From: Wickerhamiella versatilis
Lineage: Eukaryota
NCBI GenBank assembly: GCA_030867685.1
Contig: JAQOWU010000003.1
Location: 496,001 to 560,000, forward strand
Direction: 5' to 3'
Length of the DNA: 64,000 nt
The notes below the pieces were generated by a model. The model searched no databases. It saw only the letters and a list, made by a program, of their open reading frames with translations, and was not told where the DNA came from. Shown one piece after another: positions 7,939-30,110 of this stretch. The stretch's first letter is position 1, and every line of letters begins with the position of its first letter. The position numbers were made by a program, and so were the translations under genes.

Positions 7939-8814
7939 ATGGCAAGCAAACCGAGAGTTATTATCCTTTGGGTTCACCCGCGCAGTACTTCGACAATGTT
8001 CGAATGTGCTCTCTTGAATGTACAGAAGGAATTTAGGGTTCTGCATGAGCCATTGGGTAGTCCATGGTACTTTGGTCCGGAGCGACAAGCACCGCGGTTT
8101 GATTCCGAAGAATCCCTTAAGTCCTATGCTCAGTATGCAGATGCTACTTTCAAGTCCACATGGAATGAAATCGTTACCGATACATCCGATCCCAGACGTA
8201 CTTTTTCAAAGGATATGGCTCAATACATTTTCAAACCCCCTCATTCTACAGGAATTGAAGTCGGTTGGAATAAAGATCCTAAAAATCCTACATTGATCCC
8301 CACGGAATTATTGATGGATCCTTCAATCCTTCATACTTTTTTGATTCGTCGACCAGAAAAAGCAGTTCCATCCTATTACCGTCTATGTACTGGTGACCAG
8401 GCTGAAATCACTGATTTCCATTACTATGATCCTGATGAAGCAGGTTTTACTGAGCTCAAAGAGCTGTTTGACTTTGTAAAGGACCATAACGGCACACCCC
8501 CGCTTCTCATTGACTCAGATGACCTGATCAAAGATCCCAAATATTACCTGCGAAAATGGTGCGAGCATACGAATGTTGAATATTCTGACAGTCTTCTAGA
8601 GTGGAATGATGGTACTCGAGAGCACTTTGCCAAGTGGCCCGGTTTCCATGTTGCTGCGGAAAACTCGAAAGGTATTGGTAGGGGACTTCAGCAAAAAGAC
8701 CAGAACAAATTGAAACCTGAGGAGCTCCCAGATATTGTGAAAGAAACTATTCAAAATAATGAGCTTACTTATTCCTACTTAAAGTCATTTGCTCTGCCCC
8801 ACAGAGATGACTAA
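7939..8814 (+). CDS. P-loop sulfotransferase-like protein (similar to the N-domain of BCAT-like proteins)
   Basis: LWVHPRSTSTMFE, VLHEP, FSKDMA, HTFLIRRPEKAVPSYY, PLLIDSDDL..DP and L.W motifs. Confidence 0.7.
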   Translation: MASKPRVIILWVHPRSTSTMFECALLNVQKEFRVLHEPLGSPWYFGPERQAPRFDSEESLKSYAQYADATFKSTWNEIVTDTSDPRRTFSKDMAQYIFKPPHSTGIEVGWNKDPKNPTLIPTELLMDPSILHTFLIRRPEKAVPSYYRLCTGDQAEITDFHYYDPDEAGFTELKELFDFVKDHNGTPPLLIDSDDLIKDPKYYLRKWCEHTNVEYSDSLLEWNDGTREHFAKWPGFHVAAENSKGIGRGLQQKDQNKLKPEELPDIVKETIQNNELTYSYLKSFALPHRDD

Positions 8815-16681: not shown

Positions 16682-17539
16682 TTACTGCTCACTCATATGC
16701 TGCTGAGCACACGCTCTAAGCTCCTCGAGATCTTTCTGGAGCTTTCCTGTTGTTTGCGCAATGTAGGGATCGACGATATCCACTACCGCAGCCCAGTTGT
16801 GTTCGTAGTATTGGCGCTGAGCTTTGTAGATGACTTCATTTCCATCCCTAGGAATATAGTCCGCAGGGTATGCTGATGGGAAGTTGGGCCCTGAAGCGTG
16901 GAACTCACCGAGCTCCTTGTTAAACTCATCTTCGGATTGAGGCTTTCGTGCGGTTGGCTTAGGTTCAAAGTCAATCGATAAAGTATCTAGATAAACTTCC
17001 TCACAGTCTTCCTCGCTTACCCCATTCTCGTGGATTAGAACCGCGAAGTCAGTAGTAGAACCTAGTGCGATCATTGGGGCATGCCATGTAGCGGCACCAT
17101 AGGTCACTGCCTGATCGCCACGACAAATATAGGCCCGGACACCAGATAGCTCTGGCATTCCATTTGAATCATCTGGTGCGACAATAACCATGTACGCATT
17201 TTCCCAAGCTGGACGGCCCATGGGAAGAAAAGTTTGGGTTGAGAACGGATGCCTTTCGAGGACTTTGCTGGAATATACCCCATTTTGTATAAGATGTAGC
17301 GGCGGGCTACAGCGAAACAGATTAAAATTTGCCGTCGCAGGTTTATGTGAGGGCGCTTTGTCGTAGTTGTTGATGACGGGTGATAGTTTGAATAATTTTG
17401 TAGCGGTTCCATAATTTGCACTTGTGCTATTACCCGAGCTATGTTGAGAAGATATTACAGCTCCAAATGGGGCAAATGCTGCAGGCGTTAATGGCTCCGC
17501 ATTGATCGAGACAGTCGTCTTAAGCTTTGCCAAAACCAT
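16682..17539 (-). CDS. DAL3: Ureidoglycolate lyase with a C-terminal extension of about 90 aa
   Basis: AEPLTPAAFAPFGAVI, ANYGTA, VLERHPFSTQTFLPMG and GDQAVTYGAATWHAPM. ATG at 17539. Confidence 0.9.
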   Translation of the reverse strand: MVLAKLKTTVSINAEPLTPAAFAPFGAVISSQHSSGNSTSANYGTATKLFKLSPVINNYDKAPSHKPATANFNLFRCSPPLHLIQNGVYSSKVLERHPFSTQTFLPMGRPAWENAYMVIVAPDDSNGMPELSGVRAYICRGDQAVTYGAATWHAPMIALGSTTDFAVLIHENGVSEEDCEEVYLDTLSIDFEPKPTARKPQSEDEFNKELGEFHASGPNFPSAYPADYIPRDGNEVIYKAQRQYYEHNWAAVVDIVDPYIAQTTGKLQKDLEELRACAQQHMSEQ

Positions 17540-20073: not shown

Positions 20074-20688
20074 TCAGGTAGATCCTCGGTTCTTTGACAT
20101 TCGTGATCTTCCTGTATTCTTATTATTGTTGGAACCCCCTCCGCCGAAATCCGGCGCCTGGGGCATATTGGGAAGATCGATATGATATACAGTTTCAACC
20201 TTGTGGAAAGCAGTGGAGATGGTATGAGCAATGTCTGAGATTGAGCCATATACTGCTGTGGGCTCATTGCTTGGTACGACATCAAAAGCCCGGAGTTCTA
20301 TGGAACGTACGACCGGCGCGAGACTTTGCAGGTCATTACTTACAATATTTTTCACAGAAAGAGCATCAAAGTCCTGCGCTTTGAGAGTCAATTGGGCTAG
20401 GAGTCGCGAAAGTGATGAAGACAAAGGATATAGCGCGTCAACCACATTTCTAGTTAATTCATCTGAGAGGCGATTTACATTATGAAATGCATCATTCAAG
20501 TCGTGTGCCGCACTTGATAAGGGGTTAAAATCGCTTTGGATCGACAACGCATATTGAAGGCCAGACTGGGAGTTGAAAGACGACACCATTGCTTCCATCG
20601 AGTTCACATCGTTCCGGAGAATATGCACCGAGCTCACAAGGTCGACAGCAGCAGCAGCAAGACTCAAAGTACTAATAAGTACCAACAT
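20074..20688 (-). CDS. Secreted HsbA-like (hydrophobic surface binding) helical protein
   Basis: Signal peptide, amphipathic helices, an L..LTLKAQDF..L.V..IV..DLQSL pattern and I..AF......Y at the domain end. Confidence 0.6.
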   Translation of the reverse strand: MLVLISTLSLAAAAVDLVSSVHILRNDVNSMEAMVSSFNSQSGLQYALSIQSDFNPLSSAAHDLNDAFHNVNRLSDELTRNVVDALYPLSSSLSRLLAQLTLKAQDFDALSVKNIVSNDLQSLAPVVRSIELRAFDVVPSNEPTAVYGSISDIAHTISTAFHKVETVYHIDLPNMPQAPDFGGGGSNNNKNTGRSRMSKNRGST

Positions 20689-21197: not shown

Positions 21198-21952
21198 CTC
21201 TGATTATATAATAAATCACCTTTCGATTGTCTGGAGCTCCTAACCCTGTATATGACAGGATTCATTTGGGTGCGTATGCAAATGTATAACTACTCGTCAA
21301 ACCCATCAGTGTAATGCATGTTACTCCCAACAACCTCTTGTAGGCTCCTTGGAAGAAGGACTAGGTGGGTGTACTAGGAGTATTAAAGCCTCCCCAGTCT
21401 CAATGTGCACGTATAGCCCATCGAACCCATCTAACATTATGGATTTGCTGTCTTCATTCGCCCTGGTATTGCAAGCGTTAAACATGCACTAACATGCAAA
21501 CAGAAATACTCACTCGTTGACTGGTTTAGCAACTTTTTGAATATTCCCCAGCCTAGGTGGGTAGTGCTAACTAAGCGGATCCAACAGGTGTAACCCGGAC
21601 TTCCTTCTTTTTAAGACAGCTAGTTATTTTGAGTGGATATTAGCGATCATTCTGGGTACATGTAAAGAGAAGACGGCATGCAAATACTTAGGGAGACAAT
21701 ACGGCGACCAATTCCTGCACTGAGTGTACATGGTGTATATACCTTGATAGCAGCAATATCCATGGTATCACGTGAAGGTGAACTTTCGATGTCCATACCA
21801 ATTAAATACATCTAAGAATCTCCACAATTGTAGGAGCTGACGAAGCACGATGGCTCCGAGCCTGAGTGGCGACCCTAACCCGCATTACTGGAAAATTCTA
21901 CCGATGGGACCTTATATAATTCGAAGCAACTCTTTCGCTGCAAAATTCAAGT

Positions 21953-23887
21953 ATGTTGCGTTCGTTTACTCGACGTGCTGTGCCGAGCCTTTCTCGGTTC
22001 GCACGCATGAACAGCACCAAAGTTCAAGGCACTGTTATCGGTATTGACCTTGGTACCACCAACAGCGCTGTTGCTGTGATGGAGGGTAAGATTCCCAAGG
22101 TCATTGAGAACGCCGAAGGTTCCCGCACTACACCTAGTGTTGTCGCCTTCACTAAGGAGGGTGAGCGTCTCGTTGGTGTGCCAGCCAAGCGTCAGGCTGT
22201 GGTGAACCCGGAGAACACCCTGTTTGCCACCAAGCGTTTGATCGGCCGTCGGTTTGAGGATGCTGAGGTACAGAAGGACATTAAGGAAGTACCTTATAAG
22301 ATCGTTAAGCATGGCAATGGCGACGCTTGGGTTCATGTTCGTGGTAACGACTATTCTCCCCAGCAGATTGGAGGATTCATTTTGAACAAGATGAAGGAGA
22401 CTGCTGAGACCTACCTCGGTAAGTCCAGCAAGAACGCTGTCGTCACTGTTCCTGCCTACTTCAACGACGCGCAGCGCCAGGCTACCAAGGACGCTGGTCA
22501 GATTGTCGGCCTTAACGTTCTCCGTGTCGTCAACGAGCCCACTGCTGCCGCCCTGGCCTATGGTCTCGAAAAGAATGATGACAAGATCATTGCAGTTTTC
22601 GACCTTGGTGGTGGTACCTTCGATATCTCTGTTCTAGAGATCCAGAAGGGTGTTTTCGAGGTCAAGTCTACCAACGGTGATACCCATCTTGGTGGTGAGG
22701 ACTTCGACATTGCCTTGGTCCGTGACATTGTCGGCAGATTTAAGAAGGACTCTGGTATTGATCTGAGCGGCGACCGTATGGCCATCCAGCGTATCCGTGA
22801 GGCCGCTGAGAAGGCTAAGACGGAGCTTTCTTCCAGTTCTAAGACTGAAATTAACCTCCCTTTCATCACTGCTGACGCCTCTGGTCCAAAGCATATCAAC
22901 GAGTCGTACACTCGTGCTCAGTTCGAGAAATTGGTTGACCCGTTGATCAAGCGTACCGTCGACCCAGTCAAGGCTGCTCTCAAGGACGCTGACCTTAGCT
23001 CTTCTGGTGTTAACGAGGTCATCCTTGTCGGTGGTATGACCCGTATGCCTAAGGTTGTTGAGACTGTTAAGAACACCTTCAACCGTGAACCCAACCGCAG
23101 TGTCAACCCAGATGAGGCAGTGGCTATCGGTGCTGCCATTCAGGGTGCTGTCCTCAGCGGTGAGGTACAGGATGTGCTTCTTCTCGATGTGACTCCCCTT
23201 TCTCTCGGTATCGAGACCCTTGGTGGCGTTTTCACTCGCCTGATTGGCCGTAACACCACCATCCCAACACGTAAGTCTCAGGTGTTCTCAACTGCTGCAG
23301 CTGGTCAGACTTCTGTTGAGATCCGGGTCTACCAGGGTGAGCGTGAGCTTGTCCGTGACAATAAGTTGATTGGTAACTTCACTTTGGGTGGAATTCCCCC
23401 TGCCCCTAAGGGTGTTCCTCAAATTGAGGTCACTTTCGACATTGACGCTGATGGTATCATCAACGTCTCTGCTCGCGACAAGGGCACCAACAAGGATGCG
23501 GCTATCACCGTCGCTGGCTCTTCTGGTCTGAGTGAGACCGAGATTGAGAACATGGTGAAGGACGCTGAGAAATACGCTGAGTCCGACAAGGCTCGTCGTG
23601 AGCTTATCGACGGTGCCAACCGTGCCGACGGTGCTGCCAATGACATTGAGGGCAGCCTCAACGAGTACCGTCAACAGTTGGATGAGACCGACGCTAAGGA
23701 ACTCGAGGCGAAGCTTAATGAAGTCCGTGAGATCGCTGCTCGTGCTCAGGCCGGTGATGAGTCTGTCGACAAGGAGCAGTTGCGCGTTAAGACTGACGAG
23801 CTTCAGAACAAGTCCCTTGAAGTATTCCGCAAGGTCTATGAGAACAAGGCGAAGGACAACAACGGTTCTGAAAACAAATCCGAGTAA
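21953..23887 (+). CDS. SSC1: Mitochondrial Hsp70
   Basis: Presequence, [17 protein letters not shown] and ADASGPKH. Strong codon bias. TATA and GAAnnTTC upstream (21891-21920). Confidence 0.97.
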
Positions 23888-24105
23888 GTTTTGTACATAT
23901 TTGTAGATAGATTGCTTATGCGCGTATAGGCGCTATATGAACTTAGATTGATGGCTCTCGTTGAAGTTGCTTGCGTCGAATGTAGTTCGGAAATAGTTCG
24001 GTCAAGCTCTATTATTTATCGTTTTTAATTGGCCTATTTCATAAGTTTGGATAGTTAATATAGGTGTTCACACTTACCTGCTAAACGTGATTACTAATAC
24101 AGACC

Positions 24106-25710
24106 ATGCTATGGCGCCGTACACCGTCGGTGCATTGGTCTGAGGCAGATGCCCGTTGGCTTACTGCCAGCATTCTCCCTCAGCTTATTGAAAAGCATGG
24201 GAGTCAGATTTGGGCCAGTTCGCAGGCTATTGTTGATGAACGTGCAGTTGCTCATCAAATACAGTTGGACTTGGAAAATAAGGAAGACTCATCACCCGAA
24301 CTGCTTGCGGCTAAGTTGGAGGTTAACAAAGCTGTCGTATATGATATTATCAGAAAATTGAGCCTCAAAGATGTTTATGTAGGACCACATGTGGTTTTGC
24401 CTAAGCCGCGTGTGGAGAAATTGGAAGCGGAGTTGAACAAGATCACCGAGCCTGTTTCAACGTTAGCGGCATGTGAGCGCCTAGGGGTCAGTCTGGACGT
24501 ACTTGATTGGCTTGTTCGTCGAGTTACCGACCTGACTAGGTTGAACGATACCCTTATCAGAACCGATGAATACCAATCTCGACGTAGCTTACTCCATGAA
24601 AAAATCTCTCTTGCTGAAACTCCTATTGAAATTGCGTCGTTGGAGCCCAATTCAGATATTCTCCAAGCCGTATTGGCTCAAGAAAGTACCGCGGGGTCTT
24701 ATGATGCCTCCACGGGCCTCTGGACACCTACAAAATGGGTAGAAGCACGGAAAAAGCAATGCACCGATATTTTCGAAAAAAGTGGATATATATCGAACAA
24801 GGAGCTTACTGATTTTGGAGAACGCAAATCGAAGTTTGCGAAAAAAATGCATGCGGTTGAATTCGCTCGATATGTTGTAGCGCCTAGTTTTCTGGCAGGC
24901 CAGGAGCAGTTGATAAACGATGAAGTGAGTGAGAAGGGCTGGTTCGATTTGCGAACTCTCATTCTGGGTACTGAATCAGCTGCCCATATTGACATTAAAT
25001 ACCCAATCCACGAAAATTTTGTTATAAAACCATCTTTTCTTACTTCCCAAAAGGACAGTCTTTCTGAGCCTGTGTATAGTAAGGCTCTGGAGACTGCTGA
25101 ACAGCGCAGCGTGCAATATGTACCAAAGGCAAGTGACCTAAAAGTGGACCCTTCGATTCCTCGAGACTTAGCCACAATCATCGCAGAGTATTCACTGCCA
25201 TCGATCCGAGAACATTGTGTGACAGTGGCAAAAAAGATCTTGGATGCTAAGGCTGCTGATAAAGCCCGAGTAAATCAGTTAAAAGCAGCTGTATATCTTC
25301 AAGGTTTATTGAGTGTCGGTGACGAAAAATTGAGGCATATGCTTTGGGAGGAGTGGTCGCAGTATGTAGCAGAGATTGGCCCGGTGAAAAGCTTTGCACA
25401 AGCCCAGGCCCAGTATCTGGGTGAGTTTAGCCCCGAGGAAGTTAAAGAGACAGCGGACCAAATGATCGACAAGGTTCGAATGCAATTGCGCGCTGCAAAA
25501 GACCCTGCTCTCATATTACATCTGGCAATAATAGTCTATCACCACAATCACTACTCCCCAGGTGTGCTGAAGTTACGCGGTCGTATCATTCCTGCAATTC
25601 TCAAAGAATTTCATTTCCCGATTAGTTTTGTTGAGCTCAAGAATATGATTCGCCATCCTGCGCAACGTCTGATTGATCATGTCAAGAGCGATAGTATGCA
25701 TGGAGCTTAG
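24106..25710 (+). CDS. E3 UFM1-protein ligase 1 (UFL1)-like protein, N-terminally truncated
   Basis: Collinear motifs: W/LSE, tandem winged-helix spacing, LWTP..W......DIFEKSGYI..L..FG, I.DEVSEKGWFDL..L, and QL.AAKDPALILHL...L...GRIIP.I (human UFL1, from memory, has QLKVTEDPALILHL...PGRCVPQI). Confidence 0.7.
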   Translation: MLWRRTPSVHWSEADARWLTASILPQLIEKHGSQIWASSQAIVDERAVAHQIQLDLENKEDSSPELLAAKLEVNKAVVYDIIRKLSLKDVYVGPHVVLPKPRVEKLEAELNKITEPVSTLAACERLGVSLDVLDWLVRRVTDLTRLNDTLIRTDEYQSRRSLLHEKISLAETPIEIASLEPNSDILQAVLAQESTAGSYDASTGLWTPTKWVEARKKQCTDIFEKSGYISNKELTDFGERKSKFAKKMHAVEFARYVVAPSFLAGQEQLINDEVSEKGWFDLRTLILGTESAAHIDIKYPIHENFVIKPSFLTSQKDSLSEPVYSKALETAEQRSVQYVPKASDLKVDPSIPRDLATIIAEYSLPSIREHCVTVAKKILDAKAADKARVNQLKAAVYLQGLLSVGDEKLRHMLWEEWSQYVAEIGPVKSFAQAQAQYLGEFSPEEVKETADQMIDKVRMQLRAAKDPALILHLAIIVYHHNHYSPGVLKLRGRIIPAILKEFHFPISFVELKNMIRHPAQRLIDHVKSDSMHGA

Positions 25711-25938
25711 CATGACTTAAATATTTTAGTTGTCACCAGAATTGCTCTAGAGTCAATAAAGATGTTACGTTACTTGAGGAAGATTAATTCAAACCAGCAC
25801 ATTGTAAACCATAATACGGTCGATTTAGCGATTCATATCGAATCTTATGTTGATTAGTTGGTTGCAAGATTGTTAGTTAGAATCTAATATATTCGTTTAA
25901 AAATTAATTTAGTTACTAGAAGTCAGGTCCTTTTTCCA

Positions 25939-27975
25939 TCAAAATCGCACACGGGAAGTCTCCTGATAAATCTGAGCTAGCTTTTTCTGTAGAGCTGTGG
26001 CATTTTCATCAACAAATTCCAAGGAAGCCAGATGCGCATTCAAAATCTTGATTATTTGAGCTACTGGATCCTCATCCTTAATACCCTGAACATCTTGCGA
26101 AGTTCGGTTGATTTCCGTGATCACACTACCCAGGCTCGTCTCAAGGTCGTCAAGCTTACTTCCCAACGTTTCTGCCAATCCGTATGCCTCCCTTCTTTCC
26201 TGATCAACAGGTTGAAGGGCTTCTAATGAAATATTGGGCAACGCAGCAGAAGTCTGCTTCTCAAAGCGATCGAGCATTGATTCAACGTCGTCTTGCTGCT
26301 TTCCGACGTAGACAAGGATCTCATCGATCCGCGACTGTGTTTGCTCCGCCTGAGTTACTTCTGTGTACATTTCAGCAATCTGCGTGCCATTTTCAACCAA
26401 AATACGATCCCACTTCGACACATCGTCAACCTGCTCATTGAATCTTTGCACAGACTTGCTTAATGCACCCGTCCACTTGGAGACGATGTCCTCGAATGTT
26501 CTGTTTTTGAGATATTCACTAGGGCTGACTTCGAACTTCCCATCCACCGCAGCGGTTGAAGAGTTAGCAGCATCAGTACTGGCCGACGCTTGAGGTTTCT
26601 GTTCCTTCTGGCCGAATACCGATGGTTTATCTTCCTTTTTCTCGGTTTTCCCGAAGGAGAATGATCCAGAGTCCGCAGCTTTGGGCTCCGCAGCTGTGGA
26701 TGTAGCTGGCTTTTCCGAACTGCTCTTATCCTGGCCAAAACTAAAAGCCGGGGTCGAGGTTGAAGTTTTCTCGGCAGGCTTTGAATCGGTCCCACCAAAG
26801 CTGAATGCAGGTTTGTCCGCTGCTTTCTGGCCGAACGAGAAGGAGCCCGCAGCCGGAGCTTTATCATCTTTGCCTGTGCTTTCCGCAGTCTTCTGGCCCG
26901 AAGCATCACCCGGCTTACTTCCGAATGAAAAGGCTGGTGTTTCTTTTGGTTTATCCTCAGGCTTGCTTGCCCCAAAGCTGAACCCAGAAGATCCACTGGT
27001 CCCTAACTTAGCATCAGATTTAGTGGAATCCTCCTGTTTGTTTTCCGCAGGTTTTGGCGCCCCAAACAAACTGGACCCACCTGACTGGGTAGCATTTTGA
27101 TTGCTATTCTGAGTGCTTCCAAAGGAAAATCCACCCGCAGGCTTACTGTCAGACTTCTGTTGGCCGAAACTAAAGCTTGGGGTAGAGCCAGTACCTGTCT
27201 TATTTGCGTCACCGAAGCTAAAAGCTGGCTTATCCGCTGCTTTGTCTGAGGGCTTAGATTCGGTTTGCGGCGTGCTACCAAAAAGGCCAGTGGAGGAGCC
27301 TGAGCCAGTATTTGAGCCAAACAGGCCTGACCCGAGAGAGGGTGTTTTATTGTCAGTGTTTCCGAATGCATTCTTGGACTGGCCACCTGTCTGAGCACCC
27401 TGGCTCTGGGAGGAGCCAAAGAGTCCACCTCCACTGGTGCCAGTCGAGGGGGTACTACCAAACAGACCTCCAGCTGGTTTTGTGTCTTTGGAAGAGTCAG
27501 AAGTGCTAGGGTTGTTGGACTGCTGAGATCCTGATATTGATCCAAAAAGATTTGAAGACTGTTGGGTTGTGCTGTTTGAGCCAAAAAGGCTACCTGCAGG
27601 CTTACTGCTTGTTCCAAAGAGTCCTCCTCCAGAAGGTTGGGGTGCGGGTGCCGCCGAAGCGTTCGCATTGTTACTTTGTGCCGTGGACGCGGGTTTTTGA
27701 CCAAACAAACCACCAGTGCTAGCTTGGCCTGTCTGACCGAAGGCACTTCCTGCGGGCTGGCTATTGGAACTAAACAAGCTGCCTTTCGACGCACCAGCAT
27801 TACCGAAGCTGAAACCACCTGATCCAGAGCCTGCGCCAGAGCCCGAGCCCGAGCCACCTCCACTCAGACTATTCCCTGAGCTACCAAAAGAAAAAGTCGG
27901 GGTTTTATTATCACCGCCACCCGACTGTTGGCCAAAAAGGCCGCCACTACCTCCGCTCCCACCAAACGCAGACAT
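25939..27975 (-). CDS. NSP1: FG-nucleoporin Nsp1
   Basis: GLFG and KPAFSFG repeats plus a C-terminal coiled coil (LKNRTFEDIVSKW, WDRILVENG, IIKILNAHLASL). ATG at 27975. Confidence 0.94.
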   Translation of the reverse strand: MSAFGGSGGSGGLFGQQSGGGDNKTPTFSFGSSGNSLSGGGSGSGSGAGSGSGGFSFGNAGASKGSLFSSNSQPAGSAFGQTGQASTGGLFGQKPASTAQSNNANASAAPAPQPSGGGLFGTSSKPAGSLFGSNSTTQQSSNLFGSISGSQQSNNPSTSDSSKDTKPAGGLFGSTPSTGTSGGGLFGSSQSQGAQTGGQSKNAFGNTDNKTPSLGSGLFGSNTGSGSSTGLFGSTPQTESKPSDKAADKPAFSFGDANKTGTGSTPSFSFGQQKSDSKPAGGFSFGSTQNSNQNATQSGGSSLFGAPKPAENKQEDSTKSDAKLGTSGSSGFSFGASKPEDKPKETPAFSFGSKPGDASGQKTAESTGKDDKAPAAGSFSFGQKAADKPAFSFGGTDSKPAEKTSTSTPAFSFGQDKSSSEKPATSTAAEPKAADSGSFSFGKTEKKEDKPSVFGQKEQKPQASASTDAANSSTAAVDGKFEVSPSEYLKNRTFEDIVSKWTGALSKSVQRFNEQVDDVSKWDRILVENGTQIAEMYTEVTQAEQTQSRIDEILVYVGKQQDDVESMLDRFEKQTSAALPNISLEALQPVDQERREAYGLAETLGSKLDDLETSLGSVITEINRTSQDVQGIKDEDPVAQIIKILNAHLASLEFVDENATALQKKLAQIYQETSRVRF

Positions 27976-28164
27976 GCGGTGTGTATGTGTGCTTACTAAC
28001 AGAGACCTTCCACGCGGTTTAGATTCTAATACGTGAAAAGAAATATATACTGTAGACCCAGGATTTTTGAAGGCATATATAAAAAAAGAAAAAAAATATA
28101 GCATGTGAATATTATCATGTCTGAGTGAGAAAGTACGGTTCTTCAAACGTTAGATGATTATCCA

Positions 28165-28629
28165 TCAAGTAAACACGACGTTTTTCTCACTTTTTGCAGC
28201 ATTGGCTATGTACTTTGTGTGATTCCCTCTTGCCACAAGCTTTCCTGATACGTTGTCCTTTATTTCAACAAATGTGAAGGCCATGGTCCGTCCCACACGT
28301 TGGCAATAACAGTCGAGAAGAATAGTGTGACCGGGCTGCCCTCCGGCAGCGAGAAACGTCGTAGAGAGGTCCGTTGTCACTCCAGTCATAAAGTAACCGT
28401 TGGCTGCCAATGCTAATGAGCCTCCAATGTCCACAAGTGTCGACAAGACACCTCCATGAATGATTCCCAATCGGTTTGTGTGGGTCTTATCGATTTTAAG
28501 TTGTGCTTGGGCATAGTTCTGCCTGGCAGACAAAATTTGAAGGTTAGGTAGTACCGCCTTTTCTATCCCTCCACGATGGAGCATGTCACCCCACACCTGA
28601 CGAACAAAACCAACGCGCCCGATACTCAT
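28165..28629 (-). CDS. PaaI/ACOT13 hotdog thioesterase
   Basis: HTNRLGIIHGGVLSTLVDIGGSLA, GVTTDL and VARGNHTKY. Confidence 0.9.
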   Translation of the reverse strand: MSIGRVGFVRQVWGDMLHRGGIEKAVLPNLQILSARQNYAQAQLKIDKTHTNRLGIIHGGVLSTLVDIGGSLALAANGYFMTGVTTDLSTTFLAAGGQPGHTILLDCYCQRVGRTMAFTFVEIKDNVSGKLVARGNHTKYIANAAKSEKNVVFT

Positions 28630-28722
28630 AATTCTAAAGCCCTTACCACGAAGATCGAGCAGGGCGATCCAAAATTGATCGCCACGCTCCCCTGAGTTCC
28701 GAATAACTATGTATGGATAATT

Positions 28723-29267
28723 TTAGGAAGACTTACGTACCCAATCCTTCAAAACAGATGCAACAAGAGCGTGGTCATCGGCCTGTTTCAGACCGCTAAC
28801 AACCACTGCCCCCTGAATGCCCTCTGATCCCCGGACACGAATTGGGAACCCGCCGCCATGGAACGCATAATCCCTCTCAGACAAGCGATACGCAGATTCG
28901 GGAGTTCGATCCTCGATTCTCGCCTTACAGCCAAGGAAGAACGTCGAGCGATGAAATCTCAAAACAGTAGCCCGCTTGCGTTTGATCCACTCAAGGTTAT
29001 CCGGGATAACACCGGGTCTCGAACAGCACTGGAAATAGACTATTCCATCGGCGCTGCTGATACTTATAGCAACGGGTTCGCTATGAGTACGGGCTTTCTC
29101 TCGAAGAAGACACCCGATTTCAAAGGCGATATCTGCATTAAACGCATTTAGGATACTAGAGGCTTCATCCTCATCCAATTCACGAAGCTAAGTTAGTACT
29201 GTACAGACACATGAACTCGGGTGGAATTACCCGCACTTACTCCCTTATCCGCAGGTGCTGGCGCCAT
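28723..29267 (-). CDS. UPF0303/GlcG-HbpS family protein (YBR137W-like); two exons, 29267-29241 and 29187-28723
   Basis: FNADIAFEIG, PDNLEWIKRKRATVLRFHRST, YAFHGGGFPIRV and VVSGLKQADDH. Splicing keeps the frame and gives MAPAPADKG|LRELDEDE. Confidence 0.9.
29188..29240 (-). other. 53-nt spliceosomal intron
   Basis: GTAAGT...TACTAAC-TTAG on the minus strand, phase 0. It joins an upstream ATG to an exon that otherwise starts at TTG. Confidence 0.9.
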
Positions 29268-29503
29268 GATGAACTTTGTAATCAGGTTGTTTCACCCAAA
29301 CACCCGCTGTAATTGTGAATGAGACCGCGAGTACAAGATTTATTAGATAGTATTACAGGACGCTGGAAATTTCTTTCTACCGTGGATTGAGGAGCTAAAA
29401 GTTTATCTGATTCATCAATCCAGATTATACGGAGCTTGCGCTATTAAGGTAATAGGTAATCACGATAAACCTGCGCCACTGTAGTAATCGTGTACTCATA
29501 GGT

Positions 29504-29596
29504 GATGACATCATCTAACCACCTGGGGTGACTCAGGTGTGTCGTGCTTAATGAAGCCCTGGTCAAGTTCTGCATGACTATATTTAGATGACTCAT
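29504..29596. promoter_or_regulatory. Cluster of Gcn4/AP-1/CRE-like sites
   Basis: GATGACATCATC at 29504, TGACTCA at 29529 and ATGACTCAT at 29588. Confidence 0.45.
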
Positions 29597-30110
29597 ACTA
29601 ATGTGGAAAGTCAAGGAAGAAAAATCAAGGTGGGCAAGCATTGCCTGGATTTTATTATAATGTCATACGAGGAATTTCGAGAGGTTTGAACGACATGCCC
29701 GGAAATACTTCGAATATATATTCTGGAAGGCATGATATGTGAATGATCTGGGTCAGGGTAGTTAAACTGATGAAGTGGAATGCTATCCCGACTTGATGTT
29801 GTCAAGATTGAGGAGCATGGATACTTTTTAGTTTCCGCACTCTGAATATTCTGAATGGCTCTTCTACTGTTATTCTCTTTGTTTTTTGACCGATCTAAGG
29901 ACTACAATCGAAGGGGAGCGTAGGTATTATCAAGTACACTCAGCTATTTGTCATTTAGAGATTAATATGCTGCTGTCAGGCTCAAATACTTTCTCCCTAA
30001 TTGGAAATTTTAACGCTAACCTGCAAACAATTGGAATGCAAAATATTGGAACAAATTTGAATCAACTCATTTGAATCTGAGCTCAGCAAGCAGTGGTAAA
30101 AGATTTTTGA

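Follow-up and report, generated by a model that had tools for sequence, protein, structure and literature searches.

What does a UFL1-like protein do in a yeast, given that yeasts are usually regarded as having no UFMylation machinery? The question is raised by a 64,000-nucleotide stretch of Wickerhamiella versatilis DNA (contig JAQOWU010000003.1, positions 496,001 to 560,000; hereafter the window). An original prediction, made from the sequence letters alone, read a 534-aa open reading frame in it as an orphan UFL1 (UFM1 E3 ligase) without the E2-binding N-terminal helix. The ORF list and translation of the window contain this frame as a single exon, encoding the protein P0001. It lies in gene-dense, intron-poor yeast DNA, preceded by the mitochondrial Hsp70 gene SSC1 (21953-23887) across a gap of 218 bases and converging with the Nsp1 gene (25939-28104, minus strand). 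A Pfam scan of 29 of the other window proteins identified no member of the UFM1 pathway among them.

The window encodes several other proteins of note. These include an HsbA (hydrophobic surface binding protein A) family protein (20074-20688, minus strand; Pfam E=1.4e-10), from a family known mainly in filamentous fungi, and a sulfotransferase-like protein (7939-8814, plus strand; PF13469, 27.2 bits), which is unusual in a yeast. A gene at 16682-17539 (minus strand) encodes a ureidoglycolate lyase (residues 11-186) that is followed by about 100 C-terminal residues matching no Pfam family. The Nsp1 ORF (start region 27975-28104, minus strand) probably begins at Met44 (MSAFGG) rather than at the first ATG; many RNA molecules end at 27978.

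Taken singly, P0001 falls below the thresholds of its own family. It scores 16.7 bits against Pfam E3_UFM1_ligase (PF09743, residues 183-240; cut-off 23.2) and 20.4 bits against UFL1_C (PF25041, residues 459-502; cut-off 24), and a single-sequence search against PDB sequences returns no matches. The two sub-threshold matches are arranged along the protein as expected for UFL1, and many full-length relatives score above the cut-offs of the UFL1 families. A word-index homologue search recovered three proteins, and a HMMER scan of 1.84 billion representatives with a three-sequence profile gave 38 matches at E<=0.001. A profile of 25 fungal-type sequences matches four of 177635 PDB sequences, all of them human UFL1 (best E=2.9e-35), with profile positions 9-381 on human residues 26-407 and 377-552 on human 473-724. 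In the profile search suggested with the original prediction, P0001 alone thus stays below threshold and the 25-sequence profile matches human UFL1 significantly.

The AlphaFold model of P0001 (mean pLDDT 90.5, pTM 0.50) points to the same family. All six Foldseek matches at E<=0.001 are UFL1 (best 3.5e-17), the outcome that the prediction had anticipated for this comparison. Structural alignment with 8qfc_B covers 500 residues (model 11-533 on human 27-786, Z 15.6), with an rmsd of 11.5 that is due to hinge movement in the long chain. The four motif pairs on which the prediction relied are all in register with human UFL1 in both the profile and the structural alignments. In the ESM Atlas, an Ascomycota cluster ranks first and UFL1 clusters follow, a ranking that serves as a lead only. 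The fungal profile and the 500-residue alignment bear out the proposed identity, and we conclude that P0001 is a true, divergent UFL1 orthologue.

The P0001 model shares its domain order with human UFL1 (PDB 8qfc, 8ohd, 8oj8, 9gy4, 8b9x and 8c0d): a partial winged helix comes first, then five winged helices, then a C-terminal helical bundle. The model has no transmembrane segment. P0001 has 534 residues whereas human UFL1 has 794, and the two share 12-15% identity. P0001 differs in the absence of helix alpha1 and of the loop domain, in a bundle that is about 60 residues shorter, and in the loss of the W256/F260 surface.

Table 1. Features of the UFL1 locus, in window positions.
Feature	Position	Strand	Basis
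Branch/acceptor-like motif, not seen used	24092..24102	+	no donor, no joint in RNA reads
UFL1 orthologue P0001	24106..25710	+	profile, Foldseek, structural alignment, RNA depth
Residues 1-10, coil with lineage-conserved M-(x)-[LF]-W start, in the place of alpha1	24106..24135	+	alignment, model
Residues 11-44, partial winged helix (helix 13-31, strands 35-37 and 42-44)	24136..24237	+	profile, model, structural alignment
Residues 45-334, five winged-helix units ending in a long helix, boundaries approximate	24238..25107	+	secondary structure, profile
Residues 335-352, short linker replacing the human loop domain	25108..25161	+	human 408-472 unmatched, no GG[NT]
Residues 353-534, shortened C-terminal helical bundle	25162..25707	+	profile 377-552 = human 473-724

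One loss is at the N-terminus. Human alpha1 comprises residues 1-25 (PMC9627666), and a change at any one of I8, F15 and Q19 eliminates UFC1 binding but leaves UFBP1/DDRGK1 binding intact (PMC10937380). Profile, model and pattern agree that this UFC1-binding helix is absent from P0001. W11 aligns with human L27, placing the N-terminus about 16 residues short. The original prediction was therefore right about the shortening and too generous in its extent (about 25 residues). The first ten residues are coil (pLDDT 53) and do not form alpha1; nothing in P0001 corresponds to human I8 or F15, and W3 is placed close to Q19. The predicted loss of the E2-binding helix holds.

A second loss goes beyond that reading. 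Human residues 408-472 are unmatched in the profile alignment. They belong to the loop domain of human UFL1, which has 79 residues and a strand (394-396) that binds NEMF (PMC12047416), and they include the PTC loop, residues 436-448 (PMC10937380). P0001 has no GG[NT] motif of the PTC loop. A crude alpha1 pattern occurs in three of 40 proteins (P0034, P0036 and P0040), none from the ascomycete clades, and GG[NT] occurs at the loop position in two (P0039 and P0040); both counts are a rough guide, as eight of the 40 proteins are fragments. The alpha1-bearing P0034 and P0036 are also without GG[NT], so the motif is not universal. P0007/P0047/P0049, P0056 and P0072 carry extra N-terminal residues, and these were rejected as candidates for alpha1: they are mutually unlike, lack F15 and Q19, and the 90% clusters concerned also contain proteins that begin at the usual Met.

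Is the short start real? The original prediction pointed to a branch/acceptor-like TACTAAT-ACAG just upstream of the ATG that could hide an exon. The motif is present, is in frame with the ATG and resembles a real intron end of this genome (TACTAAC-TTAG), and an exon of a few bases could sit among 36 further loose read ends. Against this, the interval from the SSC1 stop to the motif has 28 GT/GC positions but no consensus donor (GTAAGT, GTGAGT or GTATGT), and the space back to that stop is short, at 218 bases. Sequencing reads of four of 24 listed runs were placed on 21900-29900, among them RNA run X23 (raw, unstranded reads from about 24% of the run; 25455 of 33088 placed reads at >=99%). RNA depth in X23 is about 125-190 over 24303-25637 and 82 over 24036-24302, compared to at most 1 over the silent stretch 29376-29900. 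The UFL1 gene is expressed. No spliced joint is listed within 23888-25710 in the X23 reads (one sample, depth about 80 upstream), whereas the control, a 53-nt intron at 29188-29240, is supported by 42 reads.

The relatives begin at the same place. Fifteen of 18 yeast-clade rows reach the N-terminus, and 14 of these start with a Met 5-13 residues before the L27 equivalent. In the remaining one, P0007, this start is preceded by an extension that is missing from three of the six full-length members of its cluster. Trp occupies position 3 or 4 of the start in 11 of the 15. We conclude that the short start of P0001 is real and a hidden exon unlikely; one spliced to the acceptor at 24102 that would restore alpha1 is extremely improbable. 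The motif is thus where the prediction placed it, and the upstream exon that it seemed to announce is not seen in the X23 reads. A spliced SSC1-UFL1 fusion was also considered and rejected: the reads contain no such joint, and the product would be out of frame.

The reads reveal further features of the region. A GTAAGT overlaps the stop codon of SSC1, 208 nt upstream of the TACTAAT-ACAG motif; 123 of some 300 RNA molecules have their end at its G (23884), and no spliced joint is found there. These ends are probably a library pile-up near the transcript end, as at 21940-21964, 23953 and 27978, and they may alternatively reflect spliceosomal cleavage that stops at the first step. The control intron (minus strand, GTAAGT ... 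TACTAAC TTAG) has its branch point 1-2 nt from the acceptor and sits in a small two-exon gene (about 28720-29270) that is missing from the ORF list. An extra A appears in A-runs of the UFL1 ORF at 24840 in 19 of 166 and at 25229 in 16 of 183 RNA reads, most likely through polymerase or sequencing slippage.

How widely is this form of UFL1 distributed? In a 30-row tree, P0001 and P0003 fall in a nine-row clade with the Starmerella bacillaris cluster (100/99). This is nested in an 18-row yeast clade that includes Trichomonascus vanleenenianus (100/99). The adjacent clade contains the Pezizomycotina Wilcoxina, Ascodesmis, Rhizina and Dactylella (100/99), and Saitoella, Cladochytrium, Bifiguratus and Calcarisporiella lie outside both. 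The tree is midpoint-rooted with several long branches and omits eight fragments (P0018, P0020, P0028, P0030, P0033, P0035, P0037 and P0038), the N-truncated P0039 and the strain variant P0002. Its order follows what we take to be the fungal species tree, which suggests that fungal UFL1 is vertically inherited. The position of P0001 in it fits a host yeast of the Starmerella/Wickerhamiella type.

In Wilcoxina, Rhizina, Dactylella, Saitoella, Bifiguratus and Calcarisporiella, too, the protein starts either directly at the L27 helix or no more than ten residues from it. Judging from these alignments, alpha1 loss therefore appears broad in fungi, encompassing budding yeasts, Pezizomycotina, Taphrinomycotina and relatives in Mucoromycota. 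The short start is shared by family members from Starmerella bacillaris (GMM50501.1), Trichomonascus vanleenenianus (XP_076540812.1), Wilcoxina mikolae (KAF8249741.1) and Saitoella complicata (XP_019021610.1). The Ascodesmis nigricans protein (TGZ78022.1) belongs to the same family and does not have it; its UniRef label is 'E3 UFM1-protein ligase 1-like N-terminal domain-containing'. No full-length member is shorter than P0001 and P0003, which fall below the Pfam cut-offs and are therefore unannotated. Identity to P0001 is 62% for the nearest non-strain relative and mostly 17-30% for the others.

Pattern searches for the loci of relatives gave no hits in 151 and 90 metagenome candidate stretches, and a search for Asgard UFL1 gave none in 104 prokaryote genomes; the patterns are insensitive and do not imply absence. 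One Saitoella annotation (P0073, 953 aa) fuses a UFL1 relative to the neighboring PAPS reductase and another separates them; the fusion is likely a gene-model error.

The family spans at least three ascomycete subphyla and retention of UFL1 in fungi is already published, so the term 'orphan' in the original prediction was too strong. UFM1 is reported as lost in fungi, with UFL1 and DDRGK1 often co-retained, Fungi included (Picchianti et al. 2023, PMC10183829). UFL1 and DDRGK1 are present in Asgard archaea and predate UFM1, and a UFM1-independent function has been proposed (PMC10183829). The same study reports that some fungi keep UFM1 pathway components and that CDK5RAP3 is lost in most fungi. 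Ufm1 was missing in fungi in a 78-genome survey that included 16 of them (PMC4327156), pathway genes are described as lost throughout fungi (PMC8057497), and Saccharomyces cerevisiae is reported to have no UFM1 (PMC11354881).

The proteins of UFM1-less eukaryotes and Asgard archaea in PMC10183829 share both the evolutionary situation and the proposal of a UFM1-independent role with the case described here. The text consulted there makes no mention of budding yeasts, nor does it report that alpha1 or the loop domain is missing, and two of the supplementary files contain no yeast names; its species figures and other supplements may list ascomycete or yeast UFL1s. A full-text literature search, mostly of papers outside subscription, retrieved no paper on budding-yeast UFL1 and none on alpha1 or catalytic-arm loss in fungal UFL1. 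The retention of fungal UFL1 and DDRGK1 after UFM1 loss is thus already known, and the matching loss of the catalytic arm is apparently new.

The function of the shortened protein may be read from the parts it keeps. Of the 18 yeast-clade rows, 15 retain the half winged helix. Its helix (13-31) and hairpin (35-44) in P0001 correspond to human 27-58, with the equivalent of L45 uncertain by one position, and model confidence is lowest here (76-82 for residues 11-40 vs about 90 thereafter). Three of 18 yeast-clade and two of five Pezizomycotina rows start after this element, possibly as truncated gene calls. In human UFL1 the partial winged helix pairs with DDRGK1, and UFL1 aggregates without DDRGK1 (PMC9627666).

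Conservation is highest in the C-terminal bundle. Its mean is 0.58-0.60 at positions 461-500 vs 0.27-0.44 elsewhere, and the best-conserved motifs, DPAL.LHL and L[KR].[STR]G[KR].[VI]PK.LK, lie within residues 466-500. P496 is invariant, and K or R occupies position 493 in all 25 rows and positions 489, 497 and 500 in 23 of 25 each. The human bundle sits in the 60S tRNA groove, between rRNA helices 69 and 38a (PMC10937380). Human UFL1 also has a basic patch, K658/K659/R662 (PMC12047416), which is not a patch in the fungal family consensus of the 25-sequence profile. In human structures, residues W256, F260 and Y266 contact uL1 jointly with CDK5RAP3, the middle of the clamp. Of the fungal rows, 24 of 25 have a polar residue in the W256 column, the F260 column is mostly charged or polar, and Y266 is hydrophobic in most.

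We propose, at about an even chance of being correct, that P0001 is a non-catalytic 60S-binding scaffold on a DDRGK1-type tether that guards or recycles ER-bound 60S subunits without UFM1. From the literature on fungi generally, we infer that UFM1 conjugation was lost in this lineage. The parts that serve the tagging cycle, namely the UFC1-recruiting helix and the PTC-entering, NEMF-binding loop domain, would then have been shed and the ribosome-binding scaffold would remain. The half winged helix could pair with a putative DDRGK1-type partner as an ER tether, the winged-helix chain would run along the 60S subunit, and the basic C-terminal bundle would enter the empty tRNA groove. In this putative role, the protein would guard free 60S subunits bound to the ER, or help to recycle them, with no catalytic step of its own.

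By analogy with human UFL1, where alpha1 is dispensable for DDRGK1 binding and needed for UFC1 binding, the pattern of loss is consistent with this scaffold. So are the retained half winged helix and the basic character of the best-conserved block, which lies in the bundle that docks on the human 60S. The co-retention of UFL1 and DDRGK1 after UFM1 loss, and their age relative to UFM1, likewise seem to favor it. Several points argue against it: CDK5RAP3, the middle of the clamp, is mostly lost in fungi, contacts to uL1 and CDK5RAP3 appear only partly kept, the human K658/K659/R662 patch seems to be gone, and some rows start after the half winged helix. Translocon release is the weakest step, because the human ligase alone does not release SEC61 and requires UFMylation to do so (PMC10937380).

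The protein could instead bind 60S or pre-60S particles away from the ER and without DDRGK1, in storage, anti-association or assembly, an option we consider rather unlikely. Another partner would complete the half winged helix, and the M-[LF]-W start could be a docking site or an N-acetylation-dependent anchor. M-L and M-F starts are NatC substrates, and the start motif is conserved despite less than 30% overall identity. The model also shows no membrane span. However, some relatives start with MV-, MQ- or MN-, the Pezizomycotina proteins are without the motif altogether, and the published pattern is one of co-retention with DDRGK1 (PMC10183829).

A role away from the ribosome, with the protein as a winged-helix scaffold in DNA repair or on chromatin, for instance, was also suggested by the original prediction and is improbable. 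Tandem winged helices bind nucleic acids elsewhere, SelB and others come next among the structural matches, and the reported in vitro substrates of UFL1 include MRE11 and histone H4 (PMC9627666). Yet these two links are UFMylation reactions that need alpha1, and the fungal protein is best kept in the bundle, which in human structures occupies the 60S groove.

It is very doubtful that P0001 is still an E3, in a genome that keeps a UFM1 pathway or another E2, and recruits its E2 without alpha1. Certain fungi do keep UFM1 pathway components (PMC10183829), but single alpha1 changes abolish UFC1 binding in the human protein (PMC10937380) and Ufm1 is missing from the 16 surveyed fungi (PMC4327156). 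A decaying leftover with no current job would fit the fast divergence and the reported absence of UFM1 from baker's yeast (PMC11354881), but is most unlikely given an expressed gene with frame and length intact in many lineages, near-invariant motifs, and at least four fixed ORF differences in run X23, of which three are synonymous among the differences listed.

Returning to the tethered 60S scaffold, we tentatively extend it to the family, as a possibility we hold to be less than probable. Fungal UFL1 may be a natural separation-of-function form, in which the E2 helix and the PTC/NEMF loop were shed in several lineages while the 60S clamp was kept for an Asgard-age UFL1-DDRGK1 job that predates UFM1, acting on ER-bound 60S without a covalent mark.

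Two questions are left open in PMC10183829: how 60S is released from the ER translocon in cells without UFM1, and what UFL1-DDRGK1 did before UFM1. Standard Pfam cut-offs miss genes such as this one, and presence/absence tables therefore undercount yeast UFL1. An expressed, single-exon UFL1 without its catalytic arm, in a budding-yeast lineage with culturable members, makes both questions testable. If the separation-of-function reading is true, a culturable yeast would allow a direct test of the job that UFL1 held before UFM1.
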